Position numbers and translations under genes: made by a program. This document shows, in pieces, positions 3,212-30,615 of a stretch of DNA of 64,000 nt. The notes below the pieces were generated by a model. The model was not told where the DNA came from. It did no database searches and saw nothing but the letters and a program-made list of their open reading frames with translations. The first letter of the stretch is position 1. The number at the start of each line of letters is the position of its first letter. The DNA is from Alphaproteobacteria bacterium (GTDB taxonomy: Bacteria; Pseudomonadota; Alphaproteobacteria; UBA828): the NCBI GenBank assembly GCA_965214705.1, contig CBDCCI010000002.1:1-64000 (forward strand), in the 5' to 3' direction.

Positions 3212-3658
3212 ATGTCGTTCGGATTGAACAGGGCAGAAGTCATTGGCCGGCTCGGTGCCGATGTCACCATCAGCAACCTCGCCTCCGGCGGGCGCGTCGC
3301 CAATATGAGCGTGGCGACCGACGAGGGGTATCTGGAGAAAAATTCGGGGACCCGGATCGACAAGACAGAGTGGCATCGGGTGGTCAGCTTCCAGAGCGGG
3401 CTGATCGACATGCTGGAAAAGCACGCGAAGAAGGGCCGGATCGTCTACGTCGCGGGCAAGCTGCAGACCAGGAAGTGGCGCAAGGACGGCGAGGACTCGG
3501 ACCGGTTCTCCACCGAGATCCTGCTGGTGCCTGGTTCGCGCGTCCAGTTTCTGGACAAGCCTGCCGGCGCCACCGGCACCGCGCCGGCCAACGGTGAGGC
3601 GGCGGAGGCCGCAAGCGGCACCGGCGAGCCTCACGACGGCAGGGCCTTGCCGTTCTAG
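3212..3658 (+). CDS. ssb: Single-stranded DNA-binding protein
   Basis: LNRAEVIGRLGAD, TEWHRV, KGRIVYVAGKLQTRKW, C-terminal LPF. Confidence 0.95.
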   Translation: MSFGLNRAEVIGRLGADVTISNLASGGRVANMSVATDEGYLEKNSGTRIDKTEWHRVVSFQSGLIDMLEKHAKKGRIVYVAGKLQTRKWRKDGEDSDRFSTEILLVPGSRVQFLDKPAGATGTAPANGEAAEAASGTGEPHDGRALPF

Positions 3659-3945
3659 CCAAGACCCCGCGGCGGGCTTCCTCGGCCCGCCCGCCCCATG
3701 GCCGGACCCGCGTCCCACCCACGCGGGTTCGGCCATTTTCGTGCAGCCTGATCCGATTCCCTCACGGGTCGGACGGCGGGGCGCGCGCTTCGCGCGCCGC
3801 CCGCCGTCCCGGCGCTCCCATAAGAGTAAGGAGAGGCCGGGACCGGGGCGCGTCCCATGCCGCGTCCAGCGAGGTCTCTCATGCTCCCCATGACCGCCGA
3901 CGGTCCCGGCTTCGCCGGTTCCCGCTTGATCCAGAAGTGTGCACC

Positions 3946-4926
3946 ATGAACGCGGCTTCCGTCGCCGCCGCACTTGCCGAGCGCGCCGAGGAGGTGTGCC
4001 GCCGATACCTGCCCTACGGACGTCGCCGGGGCAGGTACTGGGTCGCGGGCGACCTCGACGGCGGGCGCGGGCGATCCCTCTTCGTCCGTCTCGCGCCTCC
4101 GGGCACGCCGGGGAAGTTCACTGATGCGGCCACGGGCCAGCATGGCGATCTGCTCGACATCGTCCGCCACCGCATCGGCGCGCCGACGCTTCGCGCGGCG
4201 CTCGACGAGGCCCGCGCCTTCCTCGCCCGGCCGGCTGCGCCGGCTGCGGGCTCGGGCGACGCCTACGACGCCATCGAGGCGGCACGCCGCCTCTGGCACC
4301 GCTGCCGCGCCATCGACGGCACCCATGCCGAGGCCTACCTGCACGCCAGGGGTCTCGCGCGCTGCCGCTTCCCGGCACTCCGCTTCCATCCCGCGTTGCT
4401 CTACCGTGACGGCGGCGGTGTGCGCCGCCTGCCCGCCTTGGTCGCGGCCGTCACCGGCTCCGACGAAGCCGTCTGCGGCGTGCTGCGCACGTGGTTGGAT
4501 CATCGGCGTCCCACCAAGGCCAGCGTCTCGCGCGCGCGAAAGGCGCTCGGGCGCGTGCACGGCCATGCCGTGCGCTTCGGCCGCCCCGCCGACGGAGCTT
4601 CGCTCCTCGTCGGCGAGGGGATCGAGACCGTGCTGTCCATCGTCACGGCCATCCCCGACACCGTCGCCGCAGCAGCACTCTCGGCCGGCAGCCTCGGCGC
4701 ATTCGCGCCGCCTGCCGGCGTCACGCGGCTGGTGATCGCACGCGACAACGACCCCGAGGGAGAGCGTGCCGCCGAGCGCCTCGCCCGGCGCTGCACGCGG
4801 GCGGGCGTCGCCGCCACCGTCATCGTGCCTCGCGGCACCGACTTCAACGAGGACTTGCTCACATTCGGTCCCGCCGCGCTCGCCGCCTGGACGGCGGCCG
4901 CGCTCGGAGACCGGGAGCCCGAGTGA
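3946..4926 (+). CDS. Toprim-domain primase-like protein of alphaproteobacterial plasmids/ICEs
   Basis: GEGIET and IARDND toprim motifs, DFNEDL; N-terminal GDLLD region. Confidence 0.85.
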   Translation: MNAASVAAALAERAEEVCRRYLPYGRRRGRYWVAGDLDGGRGRSLFVRLAPPGTPGKFTDAATGQHGDLLDIVRHRIGAPTLRAALDEARAFLARPAAPAAGSGDAYDAIEAARRLWHRCRAIDGTHAEAYLHARGLARCRFPALRFHPALLYRDGGGVRRLPALVAAVTGSDEAVCGVLRTWLDHRRPTKASVSRARKALGRVHGHAVRFGRPADGASLLVGEGIETVLSIVTAIPDTVAAAALSAGSLGAFAPPAGVTRLVIARDNDPEGERAAERLARRCTRAGVAATVIVPRGTDFNEDLLTFGPAALAAWTAAALGDREPE

Positions 4927-5002
4927 AGCGGGCGAGGGGCGAGCCGCATGGAGAGGAGAGAGAGTCCTCTCCGCGCCGGCATCACGCTACGGGGAGAGCA
5001 CA

Positions 5003-5230
5003 ATGAGCAGCGACATCAGGTTCCGGCGGGTGGGCGAGAACGAAGCCCGCGTCTATCAGGACGGCGACTACGTCGGGGACGTCTTTCGCCACGACGACAT
5101 CCTCAACCGCGGCGCCGTGTTCTATGTCGTGCATCTCAGCGAAGACCCTCGCGGCCCCGTCAGGGTGCACGAGCGCAATCGCGTCCGCGAGGTCGCCCGT
5201 CATTTGCTCGACACCCATCCGATGCTGTGA
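5003..5230 (+). CDS. Small hypothetical protein (75 aa)
   Basis: RBS-like GGAGAG upstream; frame conserved in the paralogue at 61466..61693. Confidence 0.75.
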   Translation: MSSDIRFRRVGENEARVYQDGDYVGDVFRHDDILNRGAVFYVVHLSEDPRGPVRVHERNRVREVARHLLDTHPML

Positions 5231-5239
5231 GCGGTGACG

Positions 5240-5860
5240 AGCGCTACCGGCGGTGCCATCGGCGGCACCGGGAGCGGCTCGCTCTCGATCCCGTTGCCCG
5301 GCCCGCGGCCTGCACCGAGCCTTTCATCGCTGCGGCGGTGCCACGCCGTTTGCAGGAAACAAAAACTGGGGTCCGTTCGTCGTGATGTCCGAGGATCTCA
5401 CACGTGCTCGCGGCAGCAACCCTGCGGGTCCTTCGGTCGCTCCGCTCCCTACGGCCTGACCCAAGGAAGTCTAAGGCGGGCCGTGAAGTTCGGCGACCGT
5501 GAAGATGGCTTGCGTGTAATCGCCAACCGCCTCGTCTCGCAGCGCGCCGGCCCCTTGCGCGGGGCCGGCGCGTCACGCTGCACCGCATCAAATCCATTCG
5601 CGGAACCATTCATCGCGGCGCCTAGACGCCGGGCAGGCCCAAGCGGGCCCGCCCGGCCCGGCGCCGTAATGACCACTGGAATGGATTTGCTGCGGAGCAC
5701 CGTTCCCACCGGCACGGCGGCGCCATCTTCCGCACCAACATCGCCGAACTTCCGCACCTAATCCCGCCCAAGACTTCCTAGGGCCAGGTGCTGCCTCTGC
5801 GCGCGCGTGAATCACAAAGGACATCACGACGGGGCACAGGGTCCCGGAGGACGACAAGGG
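5240..5860. other. Conserved GC-rich non-coding block of the leading region
   Basis: Inverted, highly similar copy at 52160..52647 + 61340..61465; no ORF conserved in both copies. Confidence 0.6.
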
Positions 5861-5868
5861 AGATCGTC

Positions 5869-6786
5869 ATGATCGACACTACCAGCACTACCGCTTCTTC
5901 CACTGCCACCGTTTGCGAGAGCATGGCCCTCTACGGCGCAGCGCCCGAGCGCGGCGAGCTCGACAGCAGGGTCGTCTGGGACGAGGACGACGCCATCGAT
6001 GCGCTCAACGAGGCCATCCGCGTCATCGTCGACGGCATCACCGTAGACGGCACACAGATGGCCGACGAGCGCGAGCCCCTCATGTGGGGCCTGACCAACA
6101 TGCTGCACAGCCAGGTCACACGCCTCGACCGCGCCGTCGACCGCATCGCGCCCGAGATGCGCGACCTCGAGAAGGCGCAGGACGGGTCGGAGGTGAAGGC
6201 ATGGGAGCTGCAGACCATGACCGACCGTGCCCAGAACCTCGGCGACAGGCGCGACGCCTTCGAGAAGCTCCGCGACCTCGCCGCCGACGCCTACCGCGTC
6301 GAGACCGGCGACACCTGGCGCCCGCGCCACGGCTCGCACACGAGCCGGACCGGACAGCTCACCTCCGCCGCCATTGACGCGCGCGACTTCCGCCGCGCAC
6401 GCAAGGACCGCGAGACCCGCGCCCACCTGCCCGAGGGCACGCTCGTCGCCGTCACCGGCGGCAAGACCGTCAGCGATGCCGACGCGGTCTGGAGCACGCT
6501 CGACATGGCACGCGCTAAGTACGGCGACATGGTCCTGCTGCACGGTGGCGGTCCCGGCGTCGAGAAGATCGCTGCGAGCTGGGCGGACGCGCGCGGCGTC
6601 GACCAGGTCGTGTGCCGCCCCGACTGGAAGGCTCACGGCAACGCCGCGCCCTTCCGCCGCAACGACGAGCTGCTCGACCTGCTGCCCAAGGGCGTCATCG
6701 CCTTCCCCGGCAGCGGCATCACCGGCAACCTCGTCGACAAAGCCCGCCAGCTCGGCATACCGGTGATGCAGATGAAGGCCGCGTAA
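5869..6786 (+). CDS. DUF2493 (SLOG/YspA-like) domain protein
   Basis: VAVTGG, LLHGG, APFRRNDELL, VIAFPGSGITGNLVDKARQLGIPV. Confidence 0.85.
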   Translation: MIDTTSTTASSTATVCESMALYGAAPERGELDSRVVWDEDDAIDALNEAIRVIVDGITVDGTQMADEREPLMWGLTNMLHSQVTRLDRAVDRIAPEMRDLEKAQDGSEVKAWELQTMTDRAQNLGDRRDAFEKLRDLAADAYRVETGDTWRPRHGSHTSRTGQLTSAAIDARDFRRARKDRETRAHLPEGTLVAVTGGKTVSDADAVWSTLDMARAKYGDMVLLHGGGPGVEKIAASWADARGVDQVVCRPDWKAHGNAAPFRRNDELLDLLPKGVIAFPGSGITGNLVDKARQLGIPVMQMKAA

Positions 6787-7653
6787 GCGGCGCGCGCCTC
6801 GACCAAGCGGCCGATCCCCGATGCGGGATCGGCCGCTTTCGTCGTGTTTCACGACAGGCATCACGAACGTCGGCCTGTGCGCCCGCCCGTCGGATCGCGC
6901 ACCGCCAACCCGAGTGCGCGCTCGAACGTCCGCGTCGCCGCGCTTCGCGTCGGCGCCGTCCGCGGTCGCTGCAGCGACCGGGCTAGCCGACTGCGCCGGC
7001 ATCGCATGCCGCCCAACTTCCTCGCCATGCACCCGAGCCACGCCGGTCGCGGCTTCGCCGCGCACCGGCATCCGCAGCATTGCCCGCGGTCCCGCTGACA
7101 GCGGTGTCGGCTCCGGTGCTGATGCAGTTGACGGCGCGTCCGGCAGCGCGCTTCGCACAACTGCCCGCGGCTCCGCTCGCACCGCCGATCGTCGCGGTGA
7201 CATCCGTTCAGCGCAGCCGCAACGATGACACCGCGGTAACGAGTGCGTCGCAGCTTCTGCGCTCGCGGTAACGAGTGAAACGAACTGCCAACGCCTTGAC
7301 CATCAGCGCGTTCACCGCCCGCATCTGCGCTGCGGGAACATGTGATAGTCACGCCGCTGTTCTTTGGAACATGTGCGACCGCCATCGTGCGCTGAGGTAA
7401 CGAACCGGACCGCGAGCGAACCTGCGCACCGGCTTTGGTGCGCGATGTGTGAAGACTGCTGCCGCGAGCTTGCACCCTGCGCCCCACTTTGTTACCTCGG
7501 TTGTCGGGACGACAACGTGCAACGCGCTTGGAGATCATAGCCCGGACCTCTCGCTCAATCGCCGCAAACGCCGAAAGCAGCCGTCACCGCAGGCTTGGGG
7601 CCTGACCGCTTCTACTGCCCTCCATAGTCACCGCTCTACGGCAGAGCCGCTTC

Positions 7654-24051: not shown

Positions 24052-26441
24052 ATGCCCATCACCCTCCCGATTTGCCCCCCAGAAGCGGTTCCGATCGGCA
24101 ACAGCTGCTTCGCCGTCCTGATCTCCGACGACACCTTCACCTACTTCTCCAATCTCGTTCCGTTCGACAGCCACCCCGCCGATGACCGTGCCGCCATGCT
24201 CATGCGGATTGGCCGGCTCGCGGTGGTCAGCGACATCGCGCAACGGGATCTGGTCGACGCGTTCGGTGTCTCGCGCGCGACCGTGCTGCGCGCGCGGCGG
24301 CGCTACCTGGCCGAGGGTGAAGCGGCGTTTCTGAAACCCCGGCGCGGTCGCGGGCCGTCGGTGTTCACACCGGAACTGGCCGAGAAGGCGACAGCGTTGC
24401 TGGAAGCGGGCCTGAGCGGCTCTGCGGTGGCCCGGGTTCTGGGCGTGTCGGTGGCGTCGGTCAACAAGTGGCGCCGGCAGGGGCTGATCGGCAAGGCGGC
24501 GCAGGAGCCCGGGGGTTCGGCGCAGGGTCCACCGCCCGATGCGGTTGAGCGGCGCGTCGACGATGACGGTGCCGGCGCCCCCGGGTCCGAGACGGTACGA
24601 CCGGAAGCGCCGCCCCTGACGGAACCGGCGCAGAGCCGCTCACCAGGCCCCATCGACGCCGGGCCGCAGACCGATCGCACCGCACGCGACCGGCGCGACC
24701 GGCAGGCGCCGATGGGGCGCGCGACCTGCGATGTTTCGGGCCGGGTGCTGGCCAGCTGCGGGCAGGCGGGGCCGGTCGATCCGCAGTTCGGCAGCGCCGC
24801 CCGCGGGGTGCGCTCAGGTGGCGTTCTCACCGCCCTGCCGGCTCTGCTCAAGGAAGGCCTGCTGGCCGCGACCGAGGTCCTGCCACCGCTGCCGAAGGGC
24901 TATTACGGCCTGAACACGATCCTGCTCTTCCTGGCCTTCATGAGCTTGGCGCGGGTGCGCAATCCCGAGAGCCTGCGCTACCGGCCGCCGGGCGAATGGG
25001 GCGCCATTCTCGGCCTCGACCGCTGCCCCGAGGTCAAGACGCTGCGGCGCAAGATCGCGCTGATCGCCAACGACGAGGCCGGCGTGCGGGCCTGGCAGCT
25101 CGCCCTTGCCAGGCGCTGGCAGGCCGACGAGCCGGAGCTCTGGGCGACGCTGGCCGTCGACGGGCACGTCAAGGTCTACGCCGGCCGCAAGGGACGCCTG
25201 CCGAAACACTTCGTCTCGCGCCAGAAGCTGTGCCTGCCGGCCAGCGCCAGCTACTGGATCAATGCCCTGGGCGGCAAACCCCTGCTCTGTCTGCACAAGA
25301 CGCTGGATCCGAAGATGGTCGCCGCCATCGAAGCCGACGTGGTGGCGGCGCTGCAGGAGCTCGGGATCGTCGATGCTCAGGCGCCGGACCTGACCGCACA
25401 GGCGCCCGGCCACCCCGCGCTCACCCTGGTCTTCGACCGCGAGGGCTGGAGCCCGGAGCTGTTCCGCCGGCTGGCGAGGCGCGGCATCGCTTGCCTGACC
25501 TGGCACAAGAACTTCAGCGGCGAGGATTGGCCGGTCGAGGACTTCAGCGCGACGACCGTTCCCATTCACGGACCGGCGACGAGCGGCACCGCCGCCTTGC
25601 GGCTGGCCGAAAAGCCGGTGACGTTGCCGAACGGCTTCAGGGTGCGCCAGATCCGCCGCCTGCTGGACAACGGCCGCCAGATCCCCTTCATCGTCACCGA
25701 TCCGCACAAACCGATGGGCGAGGCCGCAGGCGCCATGGTCTCGCGCTGGTCGCAGGAAAACTTCTTCAAGTACATGCGCGACGAGTTCAACCTCGACGCC
25801 CTGCCGACCCACCAACTCGAGCCGCTCGCTCCCGACACCATGGTCGTCAACCCGCTCCGGCGGGCCTACGACAAGGCAATCCGCAGCGCCGAACGCCGGC
25901 TCGCCCGCCTGCGCAACCGGATCGCCGGCGCGGCCAGGAAAAAGAGGCCGACGGCGCAGCTCAGGAGCGAGGTCAGGGACCTCGAGGGCGCCCTCGAGAT
26001 CGCCAAGGCCAGCCGCAGGAACGTGCCGAAGCACTGTCGGGCCGGCGACCTCGACGAAGACCGACAGCTCGATGCCCTGCCCTCACGCGACCGTCTCCTC
26101 CTCGACGTCATCCGCATGATCGCCTACCGCGCCGAAACCCGCATGATGCTCCCCGTCATGCAGGGACAAGGCAAGAAGCCTCATCCCCGGAAACTGCTTC
26201 AGGCTCTCTTGGCCGCCGATGCCGACATCCTGCCGGACCCCGCCAACGGCGTTCTCCGGGTCCATATTCTCGGCCTCGCAAATGACGCCTGCGACCGCCA
26301 GATCGATGCCCTCCTGAGCGAGCTCAACGCCACCGAAACCGTCTTCCCCGGGACCGAACTGCGCATGGTCTACGAGGTCGCCGCAGCCCCGGAATCCACG
26401 CAAACCGCATCACCCCAAATCAGCAGAGGTCAGGAAGTCTG
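24052..26441 (+). CDS. Transposase (796 aa, ends ...RGQEV; stop TG|A split by the intron)
   Basis: N-terminal HTHs, VDGHVKVY, VFDREG, RWSQENFFKY (DDE-like). The ORF-track extension to 26775 is read-through into intron RNA. Confidence 0.85.
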
Positions 26442-26837
26442 GTGCGCCAGGCAAACTGGTGGAATGTCGCCGGGTGGAAGTCCCGGCAGAAAGAGAGGTG
26501 AACCGACCACTTTCTCCGCGACCCATGCGCCGGTCGTCGCGAGGCGGCAGGCGAAGCGTTGGGAAGCGGCAGGCACGGGCCGGGCTATTGAGCCACGAAA
26601 CCTGATTCAACCGGGGTGCCGAGGCTGTCAGATTAGCCGAAGGCAACACCCTGTGAGCCGTTTTGGTGAGGCGAGCAGGGGCTCTGCGGGGTCTAAGAAC
26701 CATGGCACGTGCCGAAGCAGTCCACCGGGACCTGGGAGGTCTTCGAACTGCCCCGCGGTCGTGCGGGGCCGCTAAGGAAAGGAGCTATACCGCAACCCAA
26801 TGATGTACGGTTCGAAGAAATCAGATTCGCCCATAGT

Positions 26838-28861
26838 GTGTGCTGGGCAGCGCCCAGATCAGGTGGGTTCAAGTCCCACTGGCGCTCGGGTAAGGGGCGC
26901 CATATCCAAAAGTGGGGGTAATTCGTCACTGGCCGGAGTGAGCCGATAAGCGAAACTCTAAACGGGCACGAAGCCGGAAACGGCGGAGACAGCCAAGGGA
27001 GGAGCTAAGTTGGTCCACTGTCGAAAGACAACCGGAAGGCAGGGTGTCCACCGCGAGGTGGAATCTGAAGGGCTTGCGGAGAAGTACCGGGCCGTAATCG
27101 AGGGGGCCACCCCATGATGAATCGGTCGGCCAAAGACGGGGCAAGGTCGAGCCGGCACTATGGCGGCGAAGGCGTTCTTACCCACCCGTCGCACCAAGGT
27201 GTTTGCGAGCGGCACGGTACGGAAGATCTGGACGTGACCCCAGGAGGGCTCGCCGCGTTCCCGGGTGGCACCGGGATAACGGACCCTATAAGCCGAAAGG
27301 CGAAATGGGAAAGGATGCGCGGCGAGCAATCGGACAACCGAATAGTACCTGAAGCCCGGCGAAAGCCGGGTGACCGCGCGAGCGGCGGCCGTGTGGGCCG
27401 GGGAAGTCGGTTGGCAGAGGTGGTCGGCGAGAGACAGCGATGAGTGAGTAAGGACCATGACGCGGACAAGTTCCTTGAGCGAAAGACCCGGACATCATGG
27501 CCCGAGGAGACTCATCGACTGGATCAACCCGGCGGGTGACAGGAAGGTCCACTCACTGGTGGACAAGGTGTACAAGCGGAAGAACCTTGAGGTGGCCTGG
27601 GAAAAGGTGAAGCGCAACCGGGGTGCCGGTGGCGTGGACGGAGAGGATTTAGCGGCGTTCGAGGCATCGCTGGATGCAAATCTCGATCGCCTGCACCGGG
27701 AGTTGCGGGACGGTGAGTATCACCCGCAGCCGGTTCTCCAATGCCTGATCCCCAAGGCGGGCCAGCCGGGGAAGTTCCGCCCGCTCGGCATCCCGACAAT
27801 CTACGACCGGGTGTGCCAGCAGGCGCTGCTGAACCGGCTGGAACCGATCTTCGAGCCGGTGTTCGACGATGCCAACTACGGGTACCGGCAAGGAAGGTCT
27901 GCCCATGGAGCGTTACGCAAGATATGGAGGGAACTGGACGAGGGCAACGAGTGGGTTCTCGATGCGGATTTGAAAGACTTTTTCGGGTCCGTGGACCACG
28001 AAAAGCTCCTCGAACTCGTCAACCAGCGAGTCTCGGATGGCCGGGTATTAGGTCTGCTCAGGCAGATGCTCACGGCCGGGGTGGTGGCCGACGGTAAGAG
28101 GCTGCCGACCGAACAGGGCACTCCGCAGGGCGGCATCGTTTCACCGCTGCTCAGCAATATCTTGCTGACCCCGTTCGATTGGGAAATGCGTCGTCGCGGC
28201 TATCGACTAACGCGATACGCCGATGATTGGCTGATCACGTGCCGCACACGCGGGGAAGCCCGCGCAGCACTGGAGACGGCCAGGCGGATTCTGGCAAAGC
28301 TGGGTGTGTCCCTCAACGCCGGGAAGACCCGCATTGTCCATGTCAGGCACGGGTTTGAGTTCCTCGGCTACAAGATCAAGCAGGGCGAGCGGCCTCTCCG
28401 GCTGTCGTCCTCCAAGATCAAGAGCGGGGTTCGCGGGGGAGCGCGCTACGCGGTTCCGCGTGAGAAATCCATCCGGCACTTCAAGGACCAGATTCGCCAG
28501 CGTACCCGGCGCAAGGCTCCTGTCAGCACGCAGGAGCTGATTGACGAGATCAACCCGATCATTCGGGGATGGGGCCAATACTATTGCAAGGCCCACGTCC
28601 GCGGGCTCTTCCACCAGCTTGACGGCTGGATCGTGCGGCGGCTCTGGTCGCATCGTCGCAAGCGCTGGCGCAACGCTGGCTGGAAACAGTTGCCGGAGCG
28701 CAAGCTGATCGACGAATACGGGCTTGTTCGCCTGATCTCACTGGTTCCGTCCTTGAACCTTCGTTGAGACACCTTTGTGAAAGCGGCTTACGGGAAAACC
28801 GTACGGGCCGTTTGAGCGGCGGACGGAGGCTAGCCTCGCGGGGCGCCTCCTCCGACCCGAC
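26838..28861 (+). mobile_element. Group II intron I, copy 1 (inner, 2024 nt, intact)
   Basis: 5' GTGTG; DV AAGCGGCTTACGGGAAAACCGTACGGGCCGTTT at 28781-28813; 3' end ...CCGAC; both boundaries coincide with the edges of identity to copy 2. Confidence 0.95.
27457..28767 (+). CDS. Intron I reverse transcriptase/maturase (no endonuclease domain)
   Basis: GVDG, RPLGIPT, GTPQGG, RYADD, FEFLGY, IRGWGQYY. Confidence 0.95.
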   Translation: MTRTSSLSERPGHHGPRRLIDWINPAGDRKVHSLVDKVYKRKNLEVAWEKVKRNRGAGGVDGEDLAAFEASLDANLDRLHRELRDGEYHPQPVLQCLIPKAGQPGKFRPLGIPTIYDRVCQQALLNRLEPIFEPVFDDANYGYRQGRSAHGALRKIWRELDEGNEWVLDADLKDFFGSVDHEKLLELVNQRVSDGRVLGLLRQMLTAGVVADGKRLPTEQGTPQGGIVSPLLSNILLTPFDWEMRRRGYRLTRYADDWLITCRTRGEARAALETARRILAKLGVSLNAGKTRIVHVRHGFEFLGYKIKQGERPLRLSSSKIKSGVRGGARYAVPREKSIRHFKDQIRQRTRRKAPVSTQELIDEINPIIRGWGQYYCKAHVRGLFHQLDGWIVRRLWSHRRKRWRNAGWKQLPERKLIDEYGLVRLISLVPSLNLR

Positions 28862-28865
28862 AGCA

Positions 28866-30302
28866 ATGAAGCCGGCGAACAACGGCCCCTCGGGGCCGGC
28901 GGAGCCGGGGGAGCGAAGGGGCGGACCCAAGGGCAATCCGAAAGGCCAAAGCTCGCGCCGCGCGCAGAAGCGGGGAAGCGAGTCACAGGCGGCCGACCGG
29001 ATACGACAGGCTGCAAAGAGGAACCCGGATGAGTGTCTCGTGGCGCTCCTCCACCATGTGACGGTTGACTGCCTGCGCGACGCGTACCATTCGCTGAGAA
29101 AGGACGCGGCAGCGGGGGTGGACGGCGTCACGTGGGAGGCATACGCCGACGGGCTGGAAGATCGCTTGGTCGACCTGCACGGGCGTGTGCACAGGGGGGC
29201 GTATCGGGCGCCGCCGTCGCGGCGGGTCTACATACCCAAAGAGGACGGGGGACAACGACCGCTCGGCATCGCCTCGCTGGAGGACAAGATACTCCAGCGG
29301 GCGGTGACGGATACGATTCTGGTGCCGATCTACGAGACGGAGTTCCTCGGCTTCAGCTACGGCTTCCGGCCGGGGCGGGGGACGCATAACGCGCTCGACG
29401 CCGTGGCGGTTGGAATGGAACGGCGGAAGGTCAACTGGGTCGTTGACGCCGACATCCGCGGGTTCTTCGACAATCTCGGGCGGGACCACCTGGTCGGGAT
29501 GCTCGAAAGGCGCATCGGAGACACGCGGGTCATGCGGCTGATCGTCAAGTGGCTGAACGCCGGCGTCATGGAAGGGACCGACTGGACGGACACCGGCAGG
29601 GGCGTTCCGCAGGGTGGGATAATCTCACCCTGCCTCGCCAACGTTTACCTGCATTACGTGCTCGACGACTGGTTCCACAACACATGGCGCAAACGGACGG
29701 CAGGAGGCGACACAATCATCGTGCGATACGCCGATGATTTTGTGTGCGGCTTCCAGCACGAGGGCGACGCGAAGCGTTTCCTCCGGGACCTCGGCGAGAG
29801 GCTGGCCCAGTACGGACTGGAACTGCATCCGGGCAAGACCCGGCTCATCGAATTCGGCCGCTACGCGAAAGCGAACCGCCGGACACGGGGGCAGGGCAAG
29901 CCGGAGACGTTCGACTTCCTTGGCATGACGCACTTCTGCGACCAGTCGAGGAAGGGACGGTTCAGGGTCGGCCGCAGGCCATCCCGGAAACGGGTCAACC
30001 GCACTCTGCGGGGGATCGCGGAAAGGCTGCGCAAGCGCTGGCACGACAACCGGCACGAGACAGCGAAGTGGCTGGGAAGGGTCATCGACGGCTGGCTCAA
30101 CTACTACGGCGTACCCGGGAGCGGCCGCTATCTGGTGCGGTTCGTGCACCAATGCAAACGGCTGCTCATGCGTGCCCTGCGGCGAAGGTCCCAACGGGAC
30201 CGCACCGCGTGGGAGGATATCAATCCCCTCACTGCTGCCCACTGGCCCAAGGCCAGCATCCGTCATCCGTGGCCGAACCAGCGGCTTGTCGTCAGGACCT
30301 GA
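28866..30302 (+). CDS. Intron A reverse transcriptase/maturase
   Basis: AAGVDG, RPLGI, GVPQGG, RYADD, ETFDFLGMTH, HPWP. After inner-intron removal the frame is open from ATG 26800 (MMYGSKKSDSPIV|AMKPAN). Confidence 0.93.
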   Translation: MKPANNGPSGPAEPGERRGGPKGNPKGQSSRRAQKRGSESQAADRIRQAAKRNPDECLVALLHHVTVDCLRDAYHSLRKDAAAGVDGVTWEAYADGLEDRLVDLHGRVHRGAYRAPPSRRVYIPKEDGGQRPLGIASLEDKILQRAVTDTILVPIYETEFLGFSYGFRPGRGTHNALDAVAVGMERRKVNWVVDADIRGFFDNLGRDHLVGMLERRIGDTRVMRLIVKWLNAGVMEGTDWTDTGRGVPQGGIISPCLANVYLHYVLDDWFHNTWRKRTAGGDTIIVRYADDFVCGFQHEGDAKRFLRDLGERLAQYGLELHPGKTRLIEFGRYAKANRRTRGQGKPETFDFLGMTHFCDQSRKGRFRVGRRPSRKRVNRTLRGIAERLRKRWHDNRHETAKWLGRVIDGWLNYYGVPGSGRYLVRFVHQCKRLLMRALRRRSQRDRTAWEDINPLTAAHWPKASIRHPWPNQRLVVRT

Positions 30303-30615
30303 GGGAGGAGCCGGATGCGAACAGCGCCCGTCCGGATCTGTGCGGGGGGACCGGGGCAACCCGGTTCCCTACCGCGATAGGCTGTGACAGTGTCAAAGGA
30401 TGGCGCCTTGGTCATCGCGTCAATTCTCTTCAACGAGAGCTGCCTTCTCAGTTCGATCGGCCAATCGATTGAGGAGACCCCGCAGAGGATTGGCGCGGCA
30501 CAGGTTCAATCAATACTGGGTGTCCATGGATCCTCTTAGGTGGTCCAAGACGCCCACCTGAACCAAGGTGAGAAAGTGACACACACTGCGTCGACGATAT
30601 GGGTATTTTGGGGAC

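Follow-up and report, generated by a model that had tools for sequence, protein, structure and literature searches.

The 64,000-nt stretch analysed here (the window; contig CBDCCI010000002.1 of the Alphaproteobacteria bacterium assembly GCA_965214705.1, positions 1 to 64,000) contains two nested group II introns (twintrons), and the same inner intron occupies both. The intron-encoded proteins (IEPs) of the inner intron and its two hosts were only 30-36% identical (inner vs. host A, 30%; inner vs. host B, 36%; host A vs. host B, 35%), and they thus represent three distinct lineages. How does one intron find an insertion point in hosts so different from itself and from each other? We consider it very probable that the loop at 27155-27163 serves a mobile group II intron without an endonuclease (En) domain as its exon-binding site 1 (EBS1), and that the natural homing site of this intron is the domain III internal loop (...YCRUAGU|A..., insertion at the bar) of other group II introns. 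The four introns of the window are the following:

26838..28861, + strand: inner group II intron, copy 1, intact, 2024 nt, GTGTGC...CCCGAC; boundaries from 21 near-identical genome copies and from self-comparison of the window
53184..56894, + strand (53184-54433 plus 56109-56894): inner intron, copy 2, split by a 1675-nt insertion; intron-binding site 1 (IBS1) TCGTAGT at 53177-53183
~26442..30378, + strand: host A group II intron, the outer intron of twintron 1; GTGCG at 26442, Rfam D1D4-6 at 26477-26701 (154 bits), domains V-VI at 30306-30378, IEP with a reverse transcriptase (RT) domain
~52648..61339, + strand: host B group II intron, the outer intron of twintron 2; Rfam match to domains V-VI at 61239-61339

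The loop is EBS1, as indicated by the junctions in the genome of the window, by covariation with IBS1 in relatives and by the consensus fold. The features that take part in this pairing are:

27151..27167, + strand: EBS1 hairpin, stem GCCG (27151-27154) with CGGC (27164-27167), loop GCACTATGG (27155-27163)
27157..27163, + strand: EBS1, ACUAUGG, intron positions 320-326; in copy 2 at 53503-53509
26831..26837, + strand: CCATAGT, the IBS1 of host A, in the internal loop of host domain III (5′ strand), assigned via the RF01998 consensus

A first-pass annotation of this DNA had proposed that the hairpin exposes ACUAUGG as a guide to both hosts, and its reading of the window held. The hairpin was present in copy 1, and ACTATGG recurred in copy 2. 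The CCATAGT of host A is the exact reverse complement of the loop motif, the TCGTAGT of host B pairs with it at 7/7 positions, with wobble at −5 and −7, and both 3′ exons begin with AG (28862-63 and 56895-96). The genome as a whole (three contigs, 7.9 Mb) contained 21 5′ junctions of the inner intron. Their exon ends were CCATAGT (11 junctions), TCGTAGT (four), TCATAGT (two), and TGATAGT, CTATAGT, CCGTAGT and ACGTAGT (one each), and all 21 pair with the loop at 6-7 of 7 positions. When every 7-mer of the intron was compared with the 14 distinct targets in this genome, ACTATGG at position 320 was the best partner (mean 6.86/7, minimum 6).

For the relatives, 79 loci with 66-93% IEP identity were fetched from contigs of one genome per species. 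From these, 66 stretches reaching from 20 nt of exon through the hairpin were aligned, giving 61 distinct rows; L080 (5′ end not found) and L084 (no exon sequence) were left out, and the rows retained include the L105 tandem copy and the odd junction of L093. Between the loop and the last seven exon bases, 90.8% of cells were paired, and six of the seven pairs changed on both sides. None of 500 shuffles reached any measure of this covariation, and slid registers were 24-55% paired. Covarying loop and exon pairs included ACTTTGG/CCAAAGT (L056), CTTATTG/TGATAAG (L050), ACCATGC/GCATGGT (L097), ATTATGA/TTGTAAT (L035) and ACTATCG/AGATAGT (L086). The covariation anticipated for an EBS1 was therefore present in the relatives. 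The hairpin stem itself was 99.6% paired in the same rows, with compensatory changes in three of its four pairs.

The consensus fold of 54 distinct relatives placed the hairpin (intron positions 314-330) in the 3′ half of domain I, where it forms the terminal loop of a long distal arm; EBS1 of group II introns generally sits at that arm, which by analogy we take to be Id3. The intron thus shows the pairing of the 5′ exon end with a domain I loop that is expected of a mobile group II intron.

The sequence read by this loop belongs to another ribozyme. In RF01998, a model of the uninterrupted host-type intron, the domain II hairpin is followed by a linker (..AGAAgUCAGCAGAg) and then by domain III, which has a basal stem (GcC/GgC) and an internal loop AUAGUA opposite GAAG. 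The insertion point lies between the U and the A of this loop, on the 5′ strand (AUAGU|A). The consensus fold of the inner intron showed the same anatomy: domain II spans positions 411-491 and is separated by a short J2/3 (AAUCGG) from domain III (498-576), the latter comprising a basal stem and the 5′ internal loop AAUAGUA:

27329-27334, + strand: own J2/3, AAUCGG, from the consensus fold
27335-27413, + strand: own domain III, from the consensus fold; own site GAATAGT|AC at 27340-27348

Both the RF01998 consensus and this fold bear out the domain III motif as the target. The hosts also fall into distinct intron lineages, in line with the cross-class targeting that had been annotated: in addition to the low IEP identities given above, they matched Rfam D1D4-6, D1D4-4, D1D4-3 plus D1D4-1, and D1D4-2. 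The "ATG" at 28866, just downstream of copy 1, was rejected as the start of the host A IEP. The stretch is homologous to domain III of the inner intron and is probably domain III RNA, and the alignment of the IEP to solved RTs begins at residue 67.

A host intron was directly evident at 16 of the 21 junctions in this genome, and at one more (C1_1694283) the motif alone was present. The other four insertions were outside introns: a pair of paralogous sites that follow an IS4-like transposase accounted for two, a repeated element beside an AAA_22 open reading frame (ORF) for the third, and a 597-aa ORF, entered in antisense, for the fourth. The motif-only copy (C1:1694283-1697993) has an AT-rich 5′ flank that ends in CTATAGT in a genome of 67% GC, and its 3′ flank is that of host A1; the two flanks are probably chimeric, through recombination between inner copies in different hosts.

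The inner copies were 98.9-100% identical to one another, the host families A1, A2 and A3 were 77-79% alike, and the genome contained empty sites with flanks identical to those of occupied ones. Taken together, these observations indicate repeated independent insertion. An alternative is that most nested copies are whole twintrons that moved as a unit, so that the EBS1 matches reflect a few ancestral insertions. This would explain why A1, A2 and A3 carry three, five and two occupied copies with identical junctions, and the inner copies are too alike for their insertions to be dated separately. We nevertheless regard it as unlikely. Empty and occupied copies of one host share 100% identical flanks (A1, three occupied and two empty; A3, two and two; host B, one and four; in A2 the count was five to none), and a near-identical inner intron was found in at least six unrelated host types and at four non-intron sites. 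In addition, the covariation across relatives requires repeated retargeting.

With repeated insertion through EBS1 as the preferred reading, the following course of events is proposed. EBS1 pairs with the last 6-7 bases ahead of the insertion point, and the intron would then follow the usual En-less pathway, namely reverse splicing into DNA and priming at replication forks. To restore domain III of the host, the inner intron would have to leave first by splicing, and another selfish element would offer the nested intron a safe haven. En-less introns that use the lagging-strand template are expected to point with fork movement. By cumulative GC skew, 15 of the 19 inner copies on contigs C1 and C3 were so oriented, a count for which the origin and terminus calls are rough and the orientation of the hosts is a confounder.

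How a single guide serves several hosts is suggested by the positions at which the targets vary. At −5, A-U pairs were found in 38 rows and G-U pairs in 20, and the U of EBS1 was unchanged throughout; at −7 there were 22 C-G and 16 U-G pairs. The wobble reading put forward in the first-pass annotation was therefore confirmed, A and G both being read at −5, and C and U both at −7. Where the motif varies, EBS1 presents a U (opposite A/G at −5) or a G (opposite C/U at −6 and −7). Through such wobble pairs, a single EBS1 would be able to read domain III as it occurs in several classes of intron.

Several observations weigh against this account. With the −7 pair missing from 19 of 60 rows, EBS1 amounts in effect to 6 nt and an optional seventh. 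One copy of host B was occupied, compared with four empty copies at 99-100% identity and two at 91%, and from these mostly empty sites wobble targets may be used rarely; the occupancy comparison between wobble and non-wobble sites is confounded by the co-movement of whole twintrons, and some twintron copies may have spread with their host and not by separate homing. The genome also contained 366 unoccupied YCRTAGT|A sites (335 expected). Among these were 38 [CT]CATAGT|A sites, of which only four lay in known A1/A3 host introns and 34 outside. With so many sites empty, 34 of them well paired and outside hosts, EBS1 and the +1 A cannot be the whole specificity. Either something else could be recognized, or selection could remove insertions in genes. 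Finally, splicing and mobility of the inner intron are themselves predictions from its sequence.

Further determinants were sought on both sides of the insertion point. Downstream, the first exon base was nearly invariant:

28862..28862, + strand: first 3′ exon base A, candidate IBS3; A in 20/20 3′ junctions of this genome and in 58/62 distinct relatives

An intron partner of the +1 A (EBS3) was not found at a position that varies so little (58/62 A). Immediately 5′ of EBS1 there are no bases able to pair with A, and so the recognition of +1 looks EBS3-like and not δ-δ′. Upstream, no intron segment complementary to or covarying with −8 to −25 was detected, and the EBS2/IBS2 pairing that would place the intron with IIA or IIB was thus not found. 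The first-pass annotation had likewise seen no such pairing, and complementarity, 6-mer and mutual-information scans all agreed. The best partners in the 6-mer scan for −8 to −24 averaged 4.4/6 and came from G/U-rich segments. Only the −2/321 pair combined high information with pairing when target and intron columns were compared by mutual information. An EBS2 candidate, AAUCUGA (27062-27068), is a perfect complement of TCAGATT in host A and was rejected because relatives conserve this motif and the A/G of the target is not followed at its U/C position (AAUCYGAAGG vs. target: U-A 10, U-G 12, C-A 17, C-G 14). A DNA hairpin of the IIC kind was not consistently present near −8 in the 14 distinct targets, and the structure recognition by the IEP that the first-pass annotation raised is speculative.

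These results bear on a second alternative, in which EBS1 only fine-tunes the choice and the main determinant lies upstream of −7 in the host J2/3 (..GUCRGA..), read by the IEP or by an unrecognized RNA segment. The 34 well-paired [CT]CATAGT|A sites outside empty A1/A3 hosts are unoccupied, occupied CCATAGT and TCATAGT junctions are all in introns, and a CRGA core recurs at about −16 to −12, including in targets with no sign of a host intron; all of this is what an upstream determinant would predict. The scans above returned no intron segment that could read it, and the candidate AAUCYGAAGG showed no covariation with the target. By chance, CRGA also stands upstream of 162 of the 366 unoccupied sites, its spacing varies by about 1 nt, and four insertions in this genome are outside introns altogether. 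Purifying selection alone could empty the sites in genes. On balance, an upstream determinant is possible, on the doubtful side, and targeting chiefly through EBS1 is retained here.

An intron that homes to domain III also carries a domain III of its own, and the first-pass annotation had suggested that divergence of this domain prevents self-nesting. For the intron of the window this is likely; as a general rule for its relatives it did not hold. The own site GAATAGT|AC pairs with EBS1 at 5/7 positions, −6 and −7 being unpaired, and none of the 21 copies in the genome was broken at this site (position 509/510). Among the 61 distinct rows, no used junction had −6 and −7 both unpaired, the one flagged row being an alignment-gap artefact. 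To judge from its sequence, the own GAAUAGU probably makes the inner intron a poor target for itself. For 45 distinct relatives (one of them, L050, unreliable as a truncated copy), the own site paired at 5/7 positions in 28, 4/7 in eight, 6/7 in seven and 7/7 in one. A self-compatible domain III was thus present in eight of 45, which speaks against the generality of self-avoidance.

One of these compatible genomes, G050, has the own site GCATAGT (6/7). There, the sequence immediately after an ORF-less copy is domain III of the lineage itself, beginning at position 511, and this arrangement is the remnant of a self-nesting event. No other of the 44 scored matches (40 of 55 candidates scored) began at that position. 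The contrast between the genome of the window and G050 fits self-avoidance, with a single case on the compatible side.

Self-nesting could also be rare for a different reason, namely that self-nested copies are lost or cannot propagate, with no part played by escape from EBS1 pairing. The GCATAGT site of G050 pairs as well as many used targets and yet yielded a single remnant among the 44 scored matches, and eight of 45 relatives are self-compatible, with no nested host at 64 loci having an IEP of the same lineage. These points make loss a real possibility, which we hold at somewhat below even. Against it, the own site in the genome of the window shows the sole pairing pattern never seen among distinct used junctions, and the only trace of self-nesting lies in a genome with a compatible own site. 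Avoidance through the diverged domain III is kept as the likely reading for this intron.

The protein and the 3′ part of the ribozyme agree with a mobile bacterial group II intron:

27457..28767, + strand: IEP, 436 aa; Pfam RVT_1 3.1e-40 and GIIM 2.2e-19
28781-28813, + strand: domain V, AGC triad; consensus fold of 56 distinct 3′ ends
28818-28857, + strand: domain VI, bulged A at 28855, 7 nt from the intron end; consensus fold of 56 distinct 3′ ends

The 5′ end (GTGTG at 26838) follows the GUGYG expected of such introns, and an RT/maturase ORF lies in domain IV. RF00029 fell below reporting at E=1 on copy 1, yet it matched the equivalent domains V-VI in several relatives. A Pfam search of the IEP returned RVT_1 and GIIM only, and an endonuclease domain was not found. 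The solved structures nearest to this protein are group IIC RTs (GsI-IIC, 219 bits; 7UIM, 217 bits). The En-less IEP, the kinship to IIC RTs, the lack of an evident EBS2 and the EBS3-like recognition of +1 are all shared with group IIC. IIC introns have a very short IBS1 and insert just downstream of a stem-loop (terminator or attC). The inner intron, in contrast, had neither hallmark: its EBS1 is 6-7 nt long, and there is no DNA hairpin just upstream of the site. Its domain V triad is AGC, which is also counted among the differences, and its match to D1D4-3 (RF02001, presumably the class C model) was sub-threshold at 21.4 bits, compared with a gathering score of 32, whereas some of its hosts match D1D4-3 strongly (106-139 bits).

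The relatives of the inner IEP number in the thousands (7580 proteins at E <= 1e-40). Those with 66-93% identity were found in records titled Alphaproteobacteria, Thermodesulfobacteriota, Gemmatimonadota-type, Entotheonella, Nitrospirales, Rhodothermales, Acidobacteriota, Planctomycetota and others. Nesting was counted at the 64 loci whose downstream flank reached 300 nt or more. In 45 of them another RT ORF lay just downstream of the inner intron, and these ORFs were 33-70% identical to the host A IEP, 36-41% to the host B IEP, or 33-46% to the inner IEP. Three of the 45 (L047, L105 and L107) had downstream hits 71-82% identical to the inner IEP; these are adjacent or tandem copies of the same lineage and not hosts, so the nested loci by the RT ORF count are slightly fewer than 45. 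Rfam host signatures adjoined the insertion (D1D4-6, D1D4-3 plus D1D4-1, D1D4-4, D1D4-2, or a downstream domain V) at 12 of the other 19 loci. In total, 57 of the 64 relatives were counted as nested in another group II intron, with hosts from at least four Rfam D1D4 families, and no host sign was found at the remaining seven (L044, L057, L091, L081, L097, L086 and L108). A homing site inside other group II introns is thus conserved across the lineage, as in known intron-targeting lineages.

Three loci show further arrangements. One record contains two variants of the inner intron, with EBS1 ACTATGG in a CCATAGT host (L033) and EBS1 ACTTTGG in a CCAAAGT host (L056); an uninterrupted host copy with CCAAAGT|AC adjoins the L033 intron (L033 3519-3601). 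The matched variants may reflect co-evolution of guide and target. At L115 (G050:C1:3309500-3312200; locus 897-1566), a 670-nt ORF-less intron lies at 400|401 inside a member of the "inner" lineage. It is host A-like (GTGCGCC...CTACCGCGAT), its own domain III site TGATAGT|AG is unoccupied, and the break at 400|401 was seen in several G050 copies. This is reciprocal nesting between the host A-like and inner intron lineages. At L105 (678-3076), two copies stand head to tail, and the 5′ exon of the second is the 3′ end of the first (..CCGACCCGAC|GTGCGCC). This exon fails to pair with EBS1, and the pair of copies would be a tandem insertion, an assembly artefact or a circle-derived form.

A broader picture can be drawn only tentatively, and we place it just short of an even chance: the inner intron would belong to a cosmopolitan lineage of hyperparasites, its EBS1 tuned, in part by wobble, to the J2/3-proximal loop of domain III, a motif common to several intron classes, and tracking the host variants, with reciprocal invasion turning the relationship into an arms race.

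Introns that home into other introns have been described before, with target motifs that differ from the one in domain III. The B-like En-less introns M.a.I5, UA.I3, P.l.I2 and B.th.I3 insert at the RT active-site motif within other group II introns (Tourasse and Kolsto, 2008, PMC2504315; Zimmerly and Semper, 2015, PMC4424553), and homing into group II introns is also known for nested introns of Methanosarcina (PMC4424553). As there described, the B-like lineage resembles the inner lineage in being En-less, in having a conserved homing site inside other group II introns, in forming twintrons and in using its host as a perpetual, harmless landing pad. It differs in that its target is the protein-coding YADD motif in domain IV, read with IBS1 and IBS2 (PMC2504315). 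The inner lineage does not enter the RT ORF at YADD; it inserts into the ribozyme ahead of the host ORF, at the internal loop of domain III, and only EBS1 and the +1 base are evident.

The second known case is Thermosynechococcus elongatus, whose F1 (TeI4) introns harbour nested, ORF-less F3 (TeI3) introns (Mohr et al., 2010, PMC2882425). In the account given there, identical inner introns in diverged outer ones were read as recent independent insertions, and twintrons as a route of proliferation, which is similar to the situation in the window. Those insertions, however, fall between two start codons in domain IV and concern one related family in one genome, whereas the inner intron encodes its own IEP, enters domain III and has hosts of several classes in many phyla. 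Full-text literature searches, which did not extend to supplements, returned no description of homing into domain III, and a prior description is possible.

The arrangement shows how a retroelement can escape the limit of a single homing site, with a short guide aimed at a motif that is hard for the targets to alter and wobble-capable guide bases opposite the variable target positions. It provides a natural covarying guide-target system for the EBS1 rules of introns without EBS2, and lets one ask how an outer ribozyme tolerates the interruption of domain III until the inner intron is spliced out. Intron surveys usually drop nested arrangements (PMC4028801, PMC8919778), and lineages such as this one are therefore probably under-counted.

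Other mobile elements interrupt or adjoin the twintrons. Copy 2 of the inner intron is a dead copy, cut by the 1675-nt insertion at 54434-56108. An element of about 1675 nt interrupts inner copies in this genome at query positions 1250, 1788, 863 and 411, with an overlap of 11-12 nt each time; it has a minus-strand ORF with a weak match to UPF0236. The inner intron seems to have been struck repeatedly by this element. Host B is also broken by an IS66 element at 57535-60286, which cuts its IEP; intact host B copies are present elsewhere (e.g., L113), and an empty paralogue of its exon lies at 3364-6869. The IS66-family element (580-aa transposase) is present in the window as two inverted copies that are 100% identical (57535-60286 and 176-2927).

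A six-copy repeat in this genome (C1:2645058, 2873541, 3978313 and 2146757; C2:147549; C3:2212588) carries an unoccupied TCGTAGT|AGCCGTGGAAG site, which is superficially like domain III. Host intron A is directly preceded by a Transposase_29 ORF (355 bits; 24052-26441), and twintron 1 is thus itself nested in, or abutting, another mobile element.

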